From Torpedo marmorata (lineage: Eukaryota), in the NCBI GenBank assembly GCA_977017645.1, contig OZ360236.1:37944001-38008000 (forward strand): DNA of 64,000 nucleotides, written 5' to 3'. The notes under the pieces are model-generated. The model saw only the letters and a program-made list of their open reading frames with translations, was not told where the DNA came from and did no database searches. The translations under genes and the position numbers were made by a program. Below, in pieces: positions 40,860 to 59,000 of the stretch (position 1 is the first letter of the stretch; each line of letters starts with the position of its first letter).

Positions 40860-42062
40860 GAACCATAGAACAATAAAGCACAGAAATAGGCCCTTCAGCC
40901 CTTCTAGTCCGTGCCGAACTATTATTCTCTCTAGTCCCAAAGATCTGCACCCCGACCATAGCCCCCATATCCCTCCAATCCATGTACCTGTCCAAATTAT
41001 TTTTAAAAATTAAAATTGAGCCCGCATTCACCATTTCAGCTGGTAGCTCGTTCCACACTCCCACCACTCTCTGTGTGAAGAAGTTCCCCATAATTTTCCC
41101 TCTAAACCTTTCCCCTTTCACCCTTAACCCATGTCCTCTGGTTTTTATCTCACCTACCCTCAGTGGAAAAAGTCTACCTACATTTACTCTGACTGACCCC
41201 TCATAATTTTAAATACCTCTATCAAATCTCCCCTCATTCTTCTATGCTCCAGGGAATAAAGTCCTAACCTGTTTAACCTTTCCCTGTAACTCAGTTCCTG
41301 AAGTCCGGGCAGCATCCTAGTAAATCTTCTCTGCACTCTTTCAATCTTACTGATATTGTTCCTGTAGTTAGGTGACCAAAACTGCACACAATACTCCAAA
41401 TTTGGCCTCACCAATGTCTTATACACCTTTACCATAACATCCCAACTCCTGTACTCAATACTTTGATTTATGAAGGCCAATATGCCAAAAGCTCTCTTTA
41501 CGACCCTATCTACCTATGACACCACTTTCAGGGAATTACAGTATGTATCTGTATTCCCAAATCCCTCTGTTCTACCCCACTCCTCAGTGCCCAACCATTT
41601 ACCATGTATGGCCTTTCTTAGTCTGTCCTTCCTCAGCAGCACCTCACACTTGTCTGCATTAAATTCCATCTGCCATTTTTCAGCCCATTTTTACAGCTGG
41701 TCCAGATCCCTCTGCAAGATTTGAAAGCTTTCCTCACTGTCCACTACACCTCCAATCTTTGTGCCATCTGCAAATTTGCTGATCCAATTTACCACATTGT
41801 CATCCAGATCATTGATATAAATGGCAAACAACAATGGTCCCAGCACTGATCCCTGAGGCACATCACTAGTCACAGGCCTCCAGTCTGAGAAGCAATCATC
41901 CACTACTACTCTCTGGCTTCTCCCATCAGCCAATGTCGAATCCAGTTGACTACCTCCACATGAATACCTAGCGTCTGAACCTTTCTGACTAACCTCCCAT
42001 GTGGGAACTTGTCAAAGGCCTTACTAGAGTCCATGTAGACAACATCCACAGCTTTTCCTTCA
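40860..42062 (-). mobile_element. 5'-truncated CR1 LINE
   Basis: [22 protein letters not shown] and FFTQRVVGVWNELP; same family as 56092-60430. Confidence 0.92.
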
Positions 42063-42774
42063 TTAAACTAGTAGTTTACATTGCAGAGACAAGGGATTGT
42101 AGTTTCTGGAATCTGAACCAAAAATGAGTTTGGTGGAGGGTCAGGCGGCATCTATGGAGGCAAAGGAATGGTTGACGTGTCGGGTCAAGACCTTGCATCA
42201 GTCATTTATGCTGCCCGACCCACTTAACTTCCTCCATTGGCTTGTATTTTTGGTTCACATTTACAGAACTGGAAAACGTATCTATTTTTGAATGCTGACT
42301 ACTTGTGAATATTGGAAAACATTTTTGACAGCCTTGCTTTATATAAATATGATTAAATCAAGTGGAAACCATGTGTGAGTTTATCTACAACACATTGCTG
42401 ATAATATTATGATTTAATAAACTTCTGCTTCTTTAATCTGTACACTTAGAACTCCCCAACCTGTCAGTTCAATCATAATTTCCAATGAATTGAGGTTTCT
42501 ACCCAAATTCCATTTGTCTGTTTCACCAGTGTTATTTTAGTGGTGACATCTAGAAAACATACCCTTGTACGGAAAACTTTGATAATGCATTGGATTTATG
42601 AATAACAGGAAATAATTGTCATTACATATGTGCAGAGGTATTTGAAACGGCAATGGTTGTCATAGGATTCAAATCAGTTTTAAATAACTCAGAAAAGAAT
42701 GTTAAAATTCTTGGCGATAGTCAGTACTTGTTATTATGACCATTGGCTGTAATATTTTTTTGTTATTTAATTAG

Positions 42775-48008: not shown

Positions 48009-48660
48009 GTGAATTAGTTGACTTCTATACAGAATCTGACATGATTACATTTCTTAATTTATTTAGTATGTTTAGCTTGCAGTGAATTTTCCTATTTTGA
48101 CCAAGTTGGTATCACAATAGTTAGGAAGGAAAGGTGTGAAATTATTGTTTAGGGAAATGAGTACCTCACAGATGGGTCAAGCAATAAAGATTTGTCAAGC
48201 TTAGCTCCTTCTTTATCTGAAATGTCTCCCTCCTCATTTAATCTCATTTGATGCCCCAATGCAGTTTTATCTTTTAAAGAAATGTTGTTTTAAAATATGA
48301 AACACAAGGGAAAAAAATGTGTACAACCAAGACCCACAAACGCTAGTGAGATATATAACTAGATGATTTGTTATTGTGACAGAGCATTCCAAGTGTTCTT
48401 ACTGAAAGGTTAACCTATTTTATATACCTATGTCACTGGAGAGTGCTTTTATAAAATGCTCATTCTTTAATGACAATTAACACTTGAAACCTTACCACTT
48501 TTACAAATCAGTATTCCATTAAATGTGTCCTGTAATAGGGTATTTTTGAGCGCCTTCGTAAAAATAACTCCATTTGTTTTTGCTGGTAATCATCAATTTT
48601 GTGCAGACTTTCAGCTACGAATGTGCTTTAAGTACAAAATGCTTTAAGTCGTAAGGTTAT

Positions 48661-51600
48661 TATAAGTAACGGTGACTTCGCTCCACCAATAGTCACCTGG
48701 AGGCTAAGTGTGGTCCTTGCTTTTGACGCGTTTTAATTAATTTACTAACAAAGTCCAATATGTTCAAAAACCTTTATTTTCACACATGACTTGCAGTAAT
48801 CTTCAATGACTTTAATATAAACAGTTCTTGTAAACGATGTATAATGAGTTCCTTTAAATTATTCCTTAAACAATTCCAAAACGATATGAAACACTGTAGA
48901 TGATGTTAAAGTTATAAAAACATTATAACTCGATATAAAACGGTATAAAACGGTCAATAAAGATGTGGAGACCAGACTCACCCCCCATACATCTCTATCC
49001 TTTCTTTGTTCTCTCTCTCTAATGGTTCTGCGCATGCTCCAACGCGCATACTACAATTCCCAGCCTCCCACGCGCACTATGACGTCACTCTATACTGCGC
49101 ATGCGCCCGTCGGCACTCCAGCGCATGCGCAGAGCACAGAACGGGCCGATAGCGGCCCGCAGACAATGCAAGCGCTCCGAACGGGCCGAGGACGGCCCAG
49201 CAACATCCACAACAACTACGCGGCGCTCCAAGGCCCGACAAGACATCGGAGCGCCGCAACAACGGTAAGTAAACGAGCCTACGGCTCTTACACCGGCCCC
49301 TAATTATTATAATTAGACGTAATGTCTTGAATAATAATTACACTATAAATTATAAATAACAATAACCATAATATTCAAAACAATACAAATCTTCTTTCTT
49401 CCTTCTTCATAAATCTAGAGTTTACCATAACTCTGATTCAACAAAAGTCTGTAACCTGTGAAATGTACAACAACAAATAAAGTCAGTTTACATTTATCAA
49501 AGTTCCTCTGTCTCCAACAAAAGGCAGACCTTATTAATAGGTCTGTTTAGAAAACCAGTCTTAGTTTTAATTCGCACTTGACGCACAAGTCCTCTTTGTC
49601 TTGAAAAGTCTCAATAATCTTTTCCAAGTAACCAGGAATTTCTTGAAGTTGAACCATCCATAACAATCACAATGTCTCTTTAAAGTTCTTTTATCTTCAA
49701 ATCCGAGTCAAAACGTTAACCAGTAAACCTCAAATCCTCCTCAGATAAAATAGATACAGTTTTTCTTTTGAATTTAACACAAGGCACTTCTTCAGCACGT
49801 CGTTTCACTTTATTCCTTTCTTCAGTATTCCACTTCTCATGTGAAAAATTTAAACTCTTAGAATTAGAATTTGAATATTTATCTGATTCTTTCGATTTTA
49901 AACAGGTCTGTTTAACCACTCTGGTTTCTATTGCTCTTTCCTGCAATTCTAAATCCAATTTCGCAATTTTCAATTCAGTCTTAGCTCCTTCCGAGAAATT
50001 AATAATTTGATCTGAAGTCAAAATATCATGCGATACATTGATAGTTCCATTGTCAATCCTGTTGCGGTATACTTGAAATTTTTTAATTTCTTCGTCTTGC
50101 TTGTTACATTTCTGCAATGCAATTTCACATTCTTTCTGCATTGTTAATTGTTGAACATTCAATTTACATTCTTGATTGGTTTTAAAAGTTAACTGTTTTG
50201 TGTTATTAACCAATAACTTGATCTCTTTCAAAACATTAATCTCTTCCTCCAACCTTTTACATTTTGATAATGCTGAATCTCTTTCCTCAATAACTGTATT
50301 CATTTCTTCAGCAGTTATTCTTTTCTTCCGCTTTCTGACTTTGCGAGTTTTACTTACAATTAAATCTTTCTGTTTACTGTTTTCTTGATTATCTAATATT
50401 TCCAATTCCCCTTTCAACATTTTGTTCTCTGGATTCAATTGCATTAAATTATCATTCACATTATTCTTTATTCCATCAGCACAATTTTCTGTGTTTTCCA
50501 GTTTTACATCACGTTGCAATATTTCTTCATTAGCTTTGTCTGTTGTAATCTCTGAACTACAAAATCTACATTCAGATTTGTTTTCAGTCACTTGTTTTAT
50601 TCCTGTATCTGATTCAATTACACATGAATGATCAATAGTATTATTTGCAATATCTTCTAATACTTCACTTTCATCCATTTCTGACGAAATTAATTCCTTT
50701 AATGTTGTTTTAAATACCATTGATTTATTTTCACATTGATCTGTTTTCTTTTCTTCATAAGTGATTTTCTTATTCACGGTTTTTTGCTCTTCTCTTAACT
50801 CTTCAAATTTCTCAACTGAAATTTTATTAACATTTATCGCTACCTGTTCCTGAGCAATATCATTATTTCTTTCCATTGGTCCATTGATTGCCCAACCAAG
50901 TATGGTTCTAATAGCGTAAGGTCCATTCCTTTTACTTTCTATTACTTCTTTTGGTACCAAAACCTTTGGCACATCTGAACCAATCAGCATTTCTATTTCA
51001 GAATTAATTTCAGGTAAATAAACCTTCCACAGATAAGCTAAATGATGGATATCACTTTGATGAGGAATATTTCCTTCGTTCACAGGCATAGTCTTCTGAG
51101 TATATACACTTGGAAGATCACAAAATTTTTTGTCATCCAATCCAGCAACCTCTAAGCCTGAAACAATGTTAGTTTCAACAACCTTTTCTTGTCCCATGGT
51201 TTTTAACATAATTCTTGATTTTCTTCCTTGAATATTAAGTTTATTCATTAGTCCTTCCGTGCAAAAAGATGCAGTGCTACCTGGGTCTAGAAATGCATAT
51301 GTTTTTACTATTGCATCCCCTTTCTTGGCCTTAACTTGTACAGGCACTATTGAAAGTTTGCAGTTATTCACCCCGGCCCCAGTAAGACCACTTGTCTGAA
51401 CCGAGGTTATAACATTATTTTCTGTTGTTTCCTTTTCCAATTCTTTGTTTCTGTTTTGGACATGCAAAATTCTAGGATGTTTAAAATTGCATATGTCACA
51501 ATTAATTCGCTTCTCACAGTTTTTACTGATGTGCCCTTTACACAGACAGCTAAAACATATTCCATTTTCCTTTAAGAAAGCGATCCTTTCTTTATGTTCC

Positions 51601-54471
51601 TTCCTTTCCAATTGTAAACACATTTCCAAAGCATGTCCACCTTTACAGAACAAACAACTCTTTTCATTAGGCAAACTTTCCTTTTCCTTATTTATTTTGT
51701 CCTTTTCTTTACTTATAACTTGCACATTAGTAGCAAAAGTACTCCTTTTCACTTTCGGACTAGACTGTGAATTAGACTTCCTTACATCTTTGCTCATTGA
51801 ATTATCTCTGGTATTTCCATATAGTGGATCTGTTTCAACATACACTTGTCGTTCAAGAAAATTTACCAAATCCTTTAAAGTAATTCTTCGACCATAATTT
51901 ACTTGTAAATCACAAGCCAAATTTCTCCATCTATCCCATACCTTGTAAGGTAATTTTTCTAAAATGATTCGCATATTACTATGCACATCAAGCTCACGAA
52001 TACCATCGATTTCTTCCATAGCATTACAACATCCTCTTAAAAACAAAGTATATTCTTACAAAGCCTTTACATCATTTTGTTTTATTGACGTCCATTTAAG
52101 AGCTTTATCCATATAAGCTAAAGCAATTCGATGTTTGTTGCCAAAATATTGTTCCAATAAATCCTTAGCTTTATCTAATCCTCTTCCTGAAGACATTTGA
52201 TTACAACTTTTAACCAGTTCCTTTGGATGTCCCTTTGTGAACATTTCCAAATAATAAAGACATTCATCTCGATCTTGGCATTTATCTTCAATATTGCGTT
52301 TGAAAGATCTCATAAACGATTGATATTGAAGTGGATCACCATCAAAAGTTTGTATCTCTTTCTTGGGTAAAGAAGAGAGAGACTGTAACTAAAACAATGA
52401 TGCAGCAATTTCATTTTGTCTTTCCTTGGATGACAATACATTGCTCTGTTCACTGTCTCGTGTTGTATGCAACGTATTTGGAAACCTTACTGGTGTAGTT
52501 TCTTCCATATTTCTGATGCTTGGCTCACATAACAAAGAATTTACTTCGTTCGATTGGACCCAATCCGCAGCTTTGCTTTCAGATGTTACTAATGGTACAT
52601 GTGACTCGATACCAATATGCTCGTGAAAGGTTTGTCCTTGTATATGTAAGTTTTGTATCCTTGGTTCTAAAATATCTATTTTTTTGGTTGGTTTCTTTTC
52701 CTGTGACTCTTTTTTTAAATATGACCTTTTATTATCAGACACTTTAGATAATTTACTTCGAACGCCAGATACTATTGAGCCTTCTATTGCTTTCTTTTCT
52801 GCCTTGGCAATAGCAATATTTGTTTTCAGCTCATGCTGCTCTTTTCTCTTTCTTAGCTGCTCTTGTTTCTTTCTTAGTTCCTCCTCCTGTTCTTCTAAAA
52901 CATGTTTATCCTTAAGAAATTCTTGTTGTGCAAGAAGAGCGGCCAATTTAACATCAACCTTTGTACGTGACGATGCAGAACTTGAAGTACGAGAAACTCT
53001 GGAGCTTGAACCAGAACTTCTTTTGCTTCTCCTGCTTTCAGCATTTGAGACACTGTCACTTGCTTGTATTTCGTCCTGCAGTTCATATGTTGTCTTCATA
53101 CTTACCTCTTTATCCAATTCAAATTGTTCATCATTTGTTGACACAATTTCAGCCATTTCCAAGTTATATTCTTGTTCAACTAATGAAGCTGCCTCTTCAT
53201 CCTTTGCCAGCTTCAATCTTTCAATAAGAACCTTTTTATTTCCACTTATGTCCTTTTTCAGTCGCTTCAATTCTTCTTTAATATCCGCAACCTTCATGTC
53301 TTCAATACGTTGGTCCTCAACAGCAACATCAGCGGTTGCTGCGTCAGCTGCTGATAAATCAGTAGCTGCTGTATCAGTGGCTGCTGCGGCCATTTTACTC
53401 GTCTTGTTCCTCTTTCCTTCAAGCATACACAACACTAGTCAAACAACAGTCCCCAATGGACCAGCGGCAGCAATTCCAATCTGTGTTCTTACTTGCTAAA
53501 GATACACAGAAGGAGTCCACAGACTTATGCCTACCACTTCTAATGACTGTAATGTGCTGCAATCCTTAAACGAGTTTCAACCACAACATCCGTCACTAAT
53601 ATCACTGATTTTCCAAAAATAGTTTCTCCAACGTATTTATAGGACACTTTACTATAAGATTTGAAGCTTTAAATCACTCTCTGGCTGTTATTCATGGCAG
53701 ATGGATGTAGATTACAAACTGCCCCCAACTCGAGGCATCTCCAAAATGGCCACCAATTTATATCAGTTCAAAGCACAGAGAGTTTTTTCTATCTTCTTTC
53801 CTTCAAACTTCTGTTCCAAACAGCCAGCCCTTTATTGACTATAAGTAACGGTGACTTCGCTCCACCAATAGTCACCTGGAGGCTAAGTGTGGTCCTTGCT
53901 TTTGACGCGTTTTAATTAATTTACTAACAAAGTCCAATATGTTCAAAAACCTTTATTTTCACACATGACTTGCAGTAATCTTCAATGACTTTAATATAAA
54001 CAGTTCTTGTAAACGATGTATAATGAGTTCCTTTAAATTATTCCTTAAACAATTCCAAAACGATATGAAACACTGTAGATGATGTTAAAGTTATAAAAAC
54101 ATTATAACTCGATATAAAACGGTATAAAACGGTCAATAAAGATGTGGAGACCAGACTCACCCCCCATACATCTCTATCCTTTCTTTGTTCTCTCTCTCTA
54201 ATGGTTCTGCGCATGCTCCAACGCGCATACTACAATTCCCAGCCTCCCACGCGCACTATGACGTCACTCTATACTGCGCATGCGCCCGTCGGCACTCCAG
54301 CGCATGCGCAGAGCACAGAACGGGCCGATAGCGGCCCGCAGACAATGCAAGCGCTCCGAACGGGCCGAGGACGGCCCAGCAACATCCACAACAACTACGC
54401 GGCGCTCCAAGGCCCGACAAGACATCGGAGCGCCGCAACAACGGTAAGTAAACGAGCCTACGGCTCTTACA
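48661..54471 (-). mobile_element. Non-autonomous BEL/Pao LTR retrotransposon
   Basis: 632-bp LTRs at 48661-49292 and 53840-54471, apparently identical. TSD gttat at 48656-48660 and 54472-54476. PPT aggggccgg. BEL-type Gag Cys-His array and protease; integrase C-terminal remnant at about 49500-49700. Confidence 0.92.
49716..53392 (-). pseudogene. BEL Gag-protease fused to a MIPOL1-like coiled coil; two in-frame stops
   Basis: ORFs 52389-53435, 52056-52313 and 49716-52046 are in one frame. Motifs: FDGDPLQY, CLFC..H..C, CFSC..GH..C, CDIC..H..LH, FLDPGSTASF. No RT or RNase H motifs. Confidence 0.85.
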
Positions 54472-54659
54472 GTTATTGTTGGTAGACAGGACCATCCGAG
54501 CGACATCTCATTTTCCTAGACCCTGGACTATTGAGCAACTTATAGCATTCCCAAGAGGATGATCACCCAATCATTTTCTGATCCATGATCTTGACAAGCA
54601 AAAATCTGTACTGCGACCTTCAGCTCCCAAAATTTACTGCCTCAAAATATTTATTACAT

Positions 54660-56091
54660 TAAGTGATAGAACAGAGAATTTCACTGCACAGTCCACGACC
54701 TTCAGCCCATGATGTTGTGCTAACTTTTATAAACCTATTCCACGACAATCTAATCTTTCCCTGCCTCACACCCATAACCCTCTATTTTTCTTATACCCAT
54801 GTGCCGAGCTCAGAGTCTTTTAAATGTCTCTGTTGTACCAGCCTCCACCACCACCCCCGGCAATGCATTCCAGGCATCCACCACTCTCTGTAAAATAATT
54901 TACCTCTAATGTCTCCCCACTCACCGTAAACTGATGTCCTCTGGTACTTGCTATCATTGCCCCAGGAAAAAGTTGTTGGCTGTCCACCCTATCTATGCTT
55001 CTCATAATCTTATATATCTCTATTAAGTCACCTATCATCCTCTGATGCTCCAAAGAGAAAAGCTTTAGCTCAGTCAACCATGCTTCATAAGACGTTCTCC
55101 AATCCAGGCAACATCCTGGTAAATTTCCTCTGCACCCTCTCTAAAACTTCCACCTGCAATGAGATGATCAGAACTGAACATAATACCCCAAGTGTGGTCT
55201 AACAAGAGTTTTATAGAGCTGCAACATTACCTCACAGCTCTTGAACTCAATCCCCTGTCTCATAAATGCCAGCATACCATACTATTTCTTAACCACTCTC
55301 TCAACTTGTGCAGCAAACTTGAGGGAGCTATGGACACCAAGATCCCTTTGTTCCTCCACACTATTAAGGATCCTGCCATTAACCACGAACTCTGCCTTCA
55401 GGTTTAACCTTCCAAAATGCATCACTTCATACTTATCCAAATTTAACTCCATCTGTCACATCTCTATTCTATCCATATCCTGTTGTCCAAGACAACCTTC
55501 GACACTAACCACAACATCTCCAACCTTAGTGTCATCAGCGAACTTACTGGCATACCTCTCCACTACTTCATCCAAGTCATTTGTAAAATTAACAAAGAGC
55601 AGGAGTCTCAGAACAGATCCCTGCATAATGCCACTAATTACGGACCTCCAGGCAGAATACGTTCCATCTACTACCACCCTCTGCCTTCTACAGGCAAGCC
55701 AATACAAAATCCATGCAGCCAACGTTCCATGGATCCCATTCCTCATAAATGAGCCTCATAAATGGGACACCTTGTCAAATGCCTTTCTAAAATCCAAATA
55801 CACCACATCCACCACACTATTTTCATCAATTTCTTTTGTCACCTCCTCGAAAAACTCAATTAGGCACATGAAGCACAACTTGTGGCTCACAAAGTCATGT
55901 TGACTACCCCTGAGAAGAGTACACTTCGCTAAATGCTTGTAAATCCTGTCCCTAAGAATCCTCTCCAATAATTTGCAATCAACTAACGCAAGTCTCACTG
56001 GTCTATAGTTCCCAGGATTCTCCCTGTTATCTTTCTTAAACAAGGGGACTTCATTTGCCATTCTCCAATTCTCTCATACCTCTCTTATAGT
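54660..56091 (-). mobile_element. Older CR1 LINE fragment (continues at about 60431-60540)
   Basis: PLFKKDNRENPGNYRPV, YLDFRKAFDKV and KFADDTK; interrupted by a younger CR1. Confidence 0.85.
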
Positions 56092-59000
56092 CCATAGAAC
56101 CATAGAACACTACAGCACAGAAAACAGGCCATTCGGCCCTTCTAGTCTGTGCCGAAACATCATACCGCTAGTCCCACTGACCTGCACCCATTCCATAACC
56201 TCTCCCATCCATGTATCTATCTAATTTATTCTTAAAACTTAAGAGTGATCCCGCATTTATCATGTCAGATGGCAGCTCGTTCCACACTCCCACCACTCTC
56301 TGAGTGAAGAAGTTACCCCTAATGTTCCCCCTAAACCTTTCACCTTTCACCCTAAAGCCATGTCCTCTTGGATTTATCTCTCCTAATCTAAGTGGAAAGA
56401 GCCTACTCGCATTTACTCTGTCTATACCCCTCATAATTTTGTAAACCTCTATCAAATCTCCCCTCATTCTTCTACACTCCAAGGAATAAAGTCCTAACCT
56501 GTTTAATCTTTCCCTGTAACTCAACTCCTGAAGACCCGGCAACATCCTAGTAAATCTTCTCTGCACTCTTTCAATCTTACTGATATCCTTCCTGTAGATA
56601 GGCGACCAGAACTGCACACAATATTCCAAATTTGGCCTCACCAATGTCTTATACAACCTCACCATAACATCCCAACTCCTATACTCAATACTTTGATTTA
56701 TGAAGGCCAAGATGCCAAAAGCTTTCTTTACAATTCTGTCTACCTGTGATGCCACTTTCAGGGAATTATGTATCTGTATTCCCAGATCCCTTTGTTCCTC
56801 CGCACTCCTCAGTGCCCTACCATTTACTGTGTATGTCCTACCTTGCTTTGTCCTTCCAAAATGCAACACCTCACACTTGTCTGCATTAAATTCCATCTGC
56901 CATTTTCTGGCCCATTTTTCCAGTTAGTCCAGATCCCTCTGCAAGCTTTGAAAGCCTTCCTCGCTGTCCACAATGCCTCCAATCTTAGTGTCATCAGCAA
57001 ACTTGCTGATCTAATTTACCACATTATCATCCAGATCATTGATATAGACAACAAACAACAATGGTCCCAGCACCGATCCCTGAGGCACACCACTAATCAC
57101 AGGCCTCCAGTCTGAGAAGCAATCATCCACTACCACTCTCTGTCTTCTCCCATTCAGTCAATTTCGAATCCAGTTTATAACCTCTCCATGGATACTTAGT
57201 GTCTGAACCTTCTGAATTAACCTCCCATGTGGGACCTTGTCAAAGGTTTTACTAAAGTCCATGTAGACAACATCTACAGCCTTTCCTTCATCTACCTTCT
57301 TGGTAACCTCCTCGAAAAACTCTATAAGATTCATTAAACATGACGTGCCACGCACAAATCCATGCTGACTATCCTTAATCAGCCCTTGACTGTCCAAATA
57401 CTTTTATATCCGATCTCTTAGAACACCCTCCAATAATTTACCCACTACTGATGTCAGGCTCACCGGCCTGTAATTTCCTGGTTTACTTTTGGAGCCTTTT
57501 GTCAACAACGGAACAATATGAGTTACCCTCCAATCCTCTGGCACCTCACCCGTGGCTAAGGACATTTTAAATATTTCTGCCAGGGCCCCTGCAATTTCTA
57601 CACTAGTCTCCCTCAAGGTCTGAGGGAATATCATGTCAGGCCCGGGGGATTTATCTACCTTTATTCGCTGTAAGGCAGCAAGCACCTCCTCCTCTTTAAT
57701 CTCTATATGTTCCATGACACTACTGCTTGTTTCCCTTCCTTCCATATACACTATGCCAGTTTCCTGAGTAAATACTGATGCAAAAAAACTGTTTAAGATC
57801 TCCCCCATCTCGTGAGGCTCCACACATAGATGACCACTCTTATCTTCTCGGGGACCAATTTTGTCCCTTACTATCCTTTACATTATCTGCCAAAGCAACC
57901 TCATGTCTTCATTTTGCCTTCCTTATTTCCTTCTTAAGTATTTTCTTACATTTTCTATACTCTTCTAGTACCTCATTTGCTCCTTGTTGCCTATACCTGC
58001 TATACACCTTTCTTCTTCTTAACCAGATCGCCAATATCCCTTGAAAACCAAGGTTGCCTATGCCTGTTAACTTTGCCTTTAATCCTGACAGGAACATGCA
58101 AACTCTGCACTCTCAAAATTTCGCCTTTGAAGGCCTTTCACTTACTGAACACATCCTTGCCAGAAAACAAATTATCCCAATCCACTCTTCCAAGATCCTT
58201 TCTCATTTCCACAAAATTGGCCTTTCTCCAATTTAGATTCTCAACTCGAGGACCAGACCTATCCTTATCCATAATTAACTTGAAACCAATGACATTATGG
58301 TCACTGGACCCCAAAATGTTCGCCTACACATACTTCTGTCACCTGACCTGTCTGGTTCCCTAATAGGAGATGAAGTATTGCATCCTCTCTCGTTGGTACC
58401 TCTATATATTGATTTAGAAAACTTTCCTGAACACATTTGACAAACTCCAAGCCTTCCAGCCCTTTTACAGTATGGGAGTCCCAGTCAATATGTAAAAAGT
58501 TAAAATCTCCTACTATCACAACTTTCTGTTTCTTACATCGGTCTGCTATCTCTCTACAGATTTGCTCTTCCAATTCTCTCTGACTATTGGGCAGTCTATA
58601 ATACAACCCTATCAGTGTGGTCACACCTTTCCTGTTCCTCAGCTCCACCCATATGGCCTCTGTAGACGAGCCCTCTGGGCTGTCCTGTCTAAGCACAGCT
58701 GTGATATTTTCCCTGACTAGCAATGCCACTCCTCCCCCTTTCATCCCTCCCCCTCTATCACATCTGAAACAATGGAACCCCGGAACATTAAGCTGCCAGT
58801 CCTGCCCCTCCTGCAACCAAGTCTCACTAATAGCAATAATGTCGTAATCCCACGTGCCAATCCATGCCCTAACCTCATCTGCCTTTCTGACAATACTCCT
58901 TGCATTGAAATAAATACACCTGAGAATATTTCTATCACATACAAACCTTTGATTTCTGTCTATACATGCAGTTCTCGCATGACCTTTATCCTCCTCCACC

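Follow-up and report, generated by a model that had tools for sequence, protein, structure and literature searches.

A BEL/Pao retrotransposon of Torpedo marmorata likely primes minus-strand DNA synthesis with RNA derived from its own long terminal repeat (LTR), in the manner of Tf1, and not with a tRNA. In S. pombe Tf1, the first 11 nt of the element RNA are said to pair with the primer-binding site (PBS), resulting in self-priming. The copy described here lies in a 64,000-nt stretch of contig OZ360236.1 (the window), spans 5,811 bp on the minus strand (48661–54471) and carries, directly 3′ of its 5′ LTR, the sequence GTCAATAAAG (53830–53839, element strand). The exact complement, CTTTATTGAC, occupies positions 331–340 of the 632-nt LTR, i.e. 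54132–54141 and 48953–48962, exactly where an earlier note on this DNA had located a 10-nt mid-LTR complement. That note's coordinates for a non-TGG sequence after the 5′ LTR were likewise correct, TGG being absent from the first 9 nt.

The window element and its primer-binding site

The window copy comprises the following features:

53840..54471, minus strand: 5′ LTR, 632 bp, termini TG..TA, 100% identity to the 3′ LTR
48661..49292, minus strand: 3′ LTR, identical to the 5′ LTR
54472..54476, minus strand: target-site duplication ATAAC, 5 bp, with its partner at 48656–48660
49293..49301, minus strand: polypurine tract AGGGGCCGG, abutting the 3′ LTR
53824..53839, minus strand: primer-binding site, exact 10-nt core at 53830–53839, pairing up to 16 nt
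54132..54147, minus strand: predicted self-primer motif of the 5′ LTR, core at 54132–54141
48953..48962, minus strand: second motif copy in the 3′ LTR, exact match
54259..54273, minus strand: TATA-like TATAGAG and TGACGTCA, possible promoter elements by consensus match only
53952..53957, minus strand: AATAAA, 174 nt downstream of the motif
53850..53876, minus strand: predicted U5 hairpin adjoining the PBS, weak (z −1.7)
50784..53426, minus strand: gag (SAP, DUF1759) and protease, 88% identity to residues 1–920 of the relative L073
49524..49676, minus strand: integrase C-terminus remnant (DUF5641 region), by sequence comparison

Ten nucleotides, the duplex length given previously, hold for the exact core and not for the duplex as a whole, which reaches up to 16 nt (LTR 325–340) with one G-U pair and a 2×2 internal loop (−14.0 kcal/mol). 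From base composition, 0.0009 such LTR matches are expected by chance, and among 4,522 internal start positions only the PBS and one other reach a 10-nt match to the LTR. As the 3′ end of the motif lies opposite the first PBS base, adjoining the LTR end and facing U5, the orientation of the duplex fits that of a primer. Among the best 30 of 2,098 candidate copies, 29 contained the PBS 10-mer unchanged, and 28 the LTR 10-mer. By subfamily, the integrated LTR end was found 0, 2 or 5 nt ahead of the PBS (L062, L063, L070–L078); LTR termini are TA, not CA, in families A and B, and CA in family C.

With its identical LTRs, the window copy is a young, non-autonomous BEL/Pao element. It matches residues 1–920 and 1985–2035 of L073, an unbroken relative of 2,043 residues, has its gag-protease frame broken by two in-frame stops, and is devoid of reverse transcriptase (RT), RNase H and most of the integrase. 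L073 contains Peptidase_A17 (Pao peptidase, PF05380), DUF1759, RVT_1, rve and DUF5641, the BEL/Pao domains being PF05380, PF18701 and PF03564, in the PR-RT-RH-IN order of BEL/Pao, and its domain search returned no chromodomain family; a profile search detected DUF1759 in the window copy itself. Named matches among the proteins nearest to L073 are almost all from teleost fishes (57–70% identity). A SAP DNA-binding domain (PF02037; 53200–53310, minus strand) opens Gag, while a stretch of ~1.1 kb unmatched in L073 (49679–50783, minus strand) takes the place of RT, RNase H and most of the integrase. This stretch stays open in frame after the protease, is charged and coiled-coil-like, and gave zero matches in Pfam, as did 48500–54600 in Rfam. 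Tracts like GGGGCCGG precede the 3′ LTR in many relatives. The element is flanked by LINE-like reverse-transcriptase repeat fragments (54820–57291 and 40973–42063), presumably CR1-like.

Comparison of the PBS with 33 tRNA calls (28 distinct, 9 anticodons only) revealed no full-tRNA PBS: the best match to any sampled tRNA was 6–8 nt, tRNA ends matched by 1 nt, and TGG was absent 0–6 nt after the LTR in families A, B and C and in 12 of the 13 relatives introduced below. A nested LTR element with 899-bp LTRs and a TGG-type PBS, inserted in a family C copy (L065:1847–7741), served as tRNA-type control. A host tRNA or tRNA fragment as primer, with the LTR match being secondary, would agree with the ICTV profile of Belpaoviridae, which specifies an 18-nt PBS for tRNA-Arg or tRNA-Gly and describes replication as poorly understood (PMC8742986); the restriction of the sample to 9 anticodons and the TGG at +2 in L226 also speak for it. 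Given the missing TGG, the short matches within the 9 sampled anticodons and the observation that the PBS of each family tracks its own LTR over those of others (close kin excepted), we consider a tRNA primer very improbable.

Covariation and one-way overwriting within the genome

A search with DUF5641 yielded 23,994 candidates; 150 of them were scored, and the 30 that were fetched revealed further families. For family C, whose LTR motif reads AATTTTCGTTGAC, the PBS was predicted from the LTR before the 5′ junctions were fetched. Ten of the 30 family C loci represented 5′ LTRs; all ten start with GTCAA after a spacer of 4–5 nt, and six carry the PBS GTCAACGAAAA. Relative to family A, three of the ten core pairs have changed, in each case on both sides. 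Family B, with an unrelated LTR, has a 15-nt match of its own, AATATTTCTTTGAAT opposite ATTCAAAGAAATATT, and its TAT and non-TAT arm variants covary (13/4/2/11, n = 30; Fisher p = 0.0025), with shared descent contributing to this association.

In fixed sequence contexts, the 6.2-Gb genome contains 11,007 PBS sites and 22,350 LTR-motif sites. The ~2-fold excess of the latter suggests few solo LTRs, though the two patterns may differ in sensitivity; one tandem array of elements (G000:C1:1494933–1514809) displays five PBS sites spaced 4,964 bp apart. Positions 11–13 of the PBS in the window family normally read xGC and mismatch the LTR. Both positions 12 and 13 were changed in 56 of the 11,007 sites, to ATG in 27 cases, ATA in 12 and others in 17. 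The LTR occurs in two variants, CAT and TAT, to which ATG and ATA are complementary, so that 39 PBS sites had been overwritten towards the LTR motif, as opposed to none of the 22,350 LTR sites towards the PBS. Among 30 fetched copies, CAT was present in 14/14 with ATG, and TAT in only 4/9 with ATA (p = 0.014). ATG copies turn up in many separate parts of the tree, indicating that the change recurs. Such one-way overwriting fits plus-strand synthesis that would copy the primer into the PBS, a step described for Tf1 cDNA.

A further 86 PBS sites had an extended complement. Most of the 30 examined proved to be fold-backs or inversions joined at the motif end and the U5 end, with tracts ranging from 16 to over 410 nt, and some overwritten tracts ran through U3 into the internal region. 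Many copies with fold-backs or inversions bounded by motif and PBS are found among L258–L287. Where both LTRs of one element were affected (L267/L268, L273/L274), the rearrangement went through a round of replication. Fold-backs and inversions show the two arms interacting in replication, without proving an RNA primer or mapping the start site: longer overwrites can also come from snap-back of plus-strand DNA, and the tract lengths (16 to over 410 nt) have no readable peak from which a start site could be read.

These observations bear on two other readings. The first, an inverted repeat that arose by chance or was perfected through template switching of chromosomal DNA, might draw on the existence of inversions bounded by both motifs. 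We deem it next to impossible in view of the chance expectation of 0.0009 and of the covariation, which largely excludes it. Moreover, chromosomal correction should proceed in both directions, against the observed 39 versus 0, and the intron-split complements described below cannot pair as DNA. According to the second, the duplex would serve as a conserved RNA structure in packaging, in dimerisation or in the control of translation, with some unknown RNA or protein acting as primer. Covariation indeed reports on pairing rather than priming, and no priming intermediate was observed. Yet the duplex invariably begins 0–6 nt from the end of the LTR and points its 3′ end at U5, there is no other PBS, and overwriting of the PBS runs one way, rendering this reading improbable.

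The earlier note had proposed Tf1-like self-priming in a BEL/Pao element, provided that transcription starts near 54141, and had named covariation and a tRNA comparison as checks. Its proposal is supported by covariation across families B, C and the metagenome relatives, by the lack of a full-tRNA PBS (best match 6–8 nt within the 9 sampled anticodons) and by the one-way flow from LTR to PBS.

Interrupted motifs in relatives from metagenomes

An alignment of 25 polyproteins guided the retrieval of 80 out of 469 metagenome loci plus seven genome-contig loci. LTR repeats were sought in 64 loci, and 14 had a defined LTR end, set in 13 cases by divergence into the flank and in one (L145) by a repeat ending in CA at the contig end. 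With L176 omitted as a duplicate of L174's family, 13 elements were tested. L221–L227 are BEL/Pao-like elements on contigs assigned to seven metagenome-assembled genomes of bacteria or archaea and probably represent misbinned animal DNA. A search of viral contigs found no relatives.

Of the 13 flank-defined relatives (animal DNA in metagenomes), 11 harbored an exact self-complement of 11–14 nt, matched by 0–16 of 300 shuffles each; the other two were L167 (12/13, one mismatch) and L172, which has decayed. In three relatives, the complement is contiguous (11–12 nt). In the remaining eight of the 11, it is interrupted by a predicted intron of the form GTAAG..AG: here, the best contiguous match is short and directly follows a pyrimidine tract and AG, whereas allowing for one GT..AG intron, with no GTAAG donor demanded, restores exact complements of 11–14 nt (0–4 of 300 shuffles each). 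Nevertheless, all eight split cases have a GTAAG donor, a word making up only 1–3 of the 25–63 GT sites per LTR. The predicted introns measure 76–164 nt and are placed 4–8 nt from the motif's 3′ end. In 11/11, the PBS starts with GT, and the motif is followed by C in 9/11. Apart from close kin, each PBS fits its own LTR better than those of the other elements. Pairing at the DNA level is impossible for a complement that arises only through splicing, and this is our best evidence that pairing would take place in RNA.

For replication, a fixed rule was applied to 43 further loci, 12 of which passed, compared to 31 of 1,720 shuffles; many of the 31 loci missing the rule lacked a whole LTR or fell outside its limits. 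Under a relaxed rule, whose limits were set only after inspecting these misses, all 15 loci with a known LTR start passed (vs. 32 of 1,500 shuffles), six with contiguous and nine with split motifs. Five of the 15 repeat families already counted (shared families: L184 = L174; L187, L197 and L211 = L196; L192 = L191; L195 and L198 = L199). An unconstrained complement scan of 12 of the 15 loci gave no per-element significance, shuffle means being ~10 nt. No intron-less copy of the eight split motifs was found among the 87 loci, a sample too small to carry weight. In a quick integrase tree, from which L066 was left out as short, the window's families group beside contiguous-motif elements and split-motif elements fall mostly apart; the branches are long, and the support is insufficient for ordering the gain and loss of introns.

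A putative priming route and its relation to known systems

In the window copy, a TATA-like word is located 142 nt upstream of the motif end, and the initiator-like CCACATC overlaps the 5′ side of the self-primer motif, both being consensus matches. The AATAAA 174 nt downstream places the likely poly(A) site after the motif, and in 14 of 15 elements a poly(A)-like hexamer, either AATAAA or ATTAAA, follows the motif. Equilibrium folding assigns the duplex a probability of 0.12–0.26 if the RNA starts at LTR 321–331 and of ~0 for starts at LTR 200, 260 or 300; the predicted duplex, that is, needs an RNA start within ~10 nt of the motif. As for the side duplexes of the three-duplex pretzel of Tf1, which fell short of significance, U5 hairpins had z-scores of −1.5 to −2.2 in 7/15 elements, and the post-motif helix outperformed shuffles in one of 15. 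Since the complement in intron-bearing relatives needs an upstream exon, a longer capped 5′ RNA fragment may provide the primer with its 3′ end, in place of the first 10–11 nt of the RNA as in Tf1, and the note's condition of a start near 54141 may be too narrow. In L196, for instance, TATATAAA precedes the motif end by 296 nt, so that the first exon would measure ~110 nt.

The sequences show complementarity, covariation, an intron-like interruption and one-way overwriting; from these and by analogy with Tf1, we infer a route of RNA pairing, splicing, cutting and priming. The transcript would fold such that a motif of 10–16 nt in the R region pairs with the PBS, after removal, in one group of relatives, of a spliceosomal intron within the motif. 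RNase H, which would be supplied in trans to the RT-less window copy, would then cleave immediately 3′ of the motif, in most cases at ..AC|C, leaving a 3′-OH facing U5. RT would extend this end into U5, halt at the cut and jump to the 3′ copy of R, whereby everything upstream of the cut, intron included, would be rebuilt from the 3′ LTR; plus-strand synthesis would sometimes copy the primer into the PBS. Because of this rebuilding, an intron in R would be heritable; it would be lost if a spliced 5′ end underwent ordinary full-R strong-stop copying. Inheritance would require the 3′ copy often to escape splicing, which weighs against the route. With moderate confidence, the sequence relationships point to a widespread self-priming BEL/Pao lineage in which many families would build their primer by splicing, such that splicing gates replication and the intron persists as minus-strand synthesis stops at a cut downstream of it.

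The same primer sequence might instead derive from the 3′ copy of R or from a second packaged genome rather than from the 5′ end folding back in cis: the motif also precedes AATAAA in the 3′ LTR, folding in cis is predicted to be weak, and some fold-back tracts take in U3 and internal sequence. However, in intron-bearing relatives inheritance demands an intron retained in the 3′ copy, and priming a spliced RNA, which seems to point to the 5′ copy; we regard this variant as unlikely, albeit the least so among the alternatives.

If the 5′ LTR transcript does prime, BEL/Pao would become a third LTR superfamily with self-priming, besides Gypsy (shown for Tf1, predicted for some others) and Copia (predicted for some), contrary to the tRNA statement in the ICTV profile, and a single genome would contain a self-priming family with ~11,000 PBS-bearing copies. 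More surprising still is the primer split by an intron: if true, a reverse-transcription primer would be made by the spliceosome, offering a reason for the persistence of an intron inside an LTR. PBS annotation based on tRNAs would, in that case, miss such elements. The literature searched held no account of self-priming in BEL/Pao elements or of a primer split by an intron, although Repbase Reports, GyDB or subscription papers may contain an earlier mention. Neither PBS nor priming came up in term searches of the Sinbad paper (PMC554778), a survey of BEL/Pao elements (PMC3118150) and PMC2774666, and PMC3601003 and PMC4558846 added nothing in the portions covered.

Belpaoviridae are defined by LTRs of 0.2–1.2 kb, a single gag-pol, PR-RT-RH-IN order, a polypurine tract and animal hosts (ICTV 2021; PMC8742986). 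The window copy has an LTR length within this range, a polypurine tract and a target duplication, and the lineage shares with the family the LTR length, the single gag-pol with its domain order, the polypurine tract and the animal host. Unlike the family, the studied lineage does not possess the 18-nt PBS for tRNA-Arg or tRNA-Gly; its polyprotein is BEL/Pao yet a tRNA-type PBS is absent, so that it departs from a stated trait of Belpaoviridae.

As excerpted from PMC6317226, the sequence criterion for self-priming is an LTR complement of at least 10 nt at an offset of 0–5 nt, and self-priming is listed for Tf1/sushi, Tcn1 and the Copia elements TAR, Houba and Osr-1. Complements of this kind, at least 10 nt long and 0–5 nt after the LTR, were found in the window copy, in families B and C and in relatives. 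The Copia TAR lineage (Houba, Osr-1), for which self-priming was predicted from sequence by the same criterion, belongs to plant Ty1/copia, and the excerpted text does not mention an intron-split primer.

The closest parallel is with Tf1/Tf2 and the Tf1/sushi group (Tj1, Tosmo, Tcn1), which, according to the sections available to us, likewise have no tRNA PBS, a 5′ LTR complement of 10–14 nt and a PBS adjoining U5. The Tf1 mechanism is set out in portions of PMC7175516, PMC4600332, PMC5341516 and bioRxiv 2022.12.06.519325; RNase H cleavage 3′ of the primer is the mechanism that naturally suggests itself (PMC7175516, PMC4600332, bioRxiv 2022.12.06.519325, in the parts at hand), and Tf1 copies its primer into the cDNA's 3′ end (PMC11042837, in extract). 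Unlike the chromoviral Gypsy elements of Tf1/sushi, the lineage described here has BEL/Pao domains (PF05380, PF18701, PF03564), no chromodomain and a spacer of 0–6 nt; unlike Tf1, many relatives have an intron-split primer, which may not consist of the first RNA bases. Judged by its domains, the window element thus falls outside the Tf1/sushi group, although it appears to work like Tf1.
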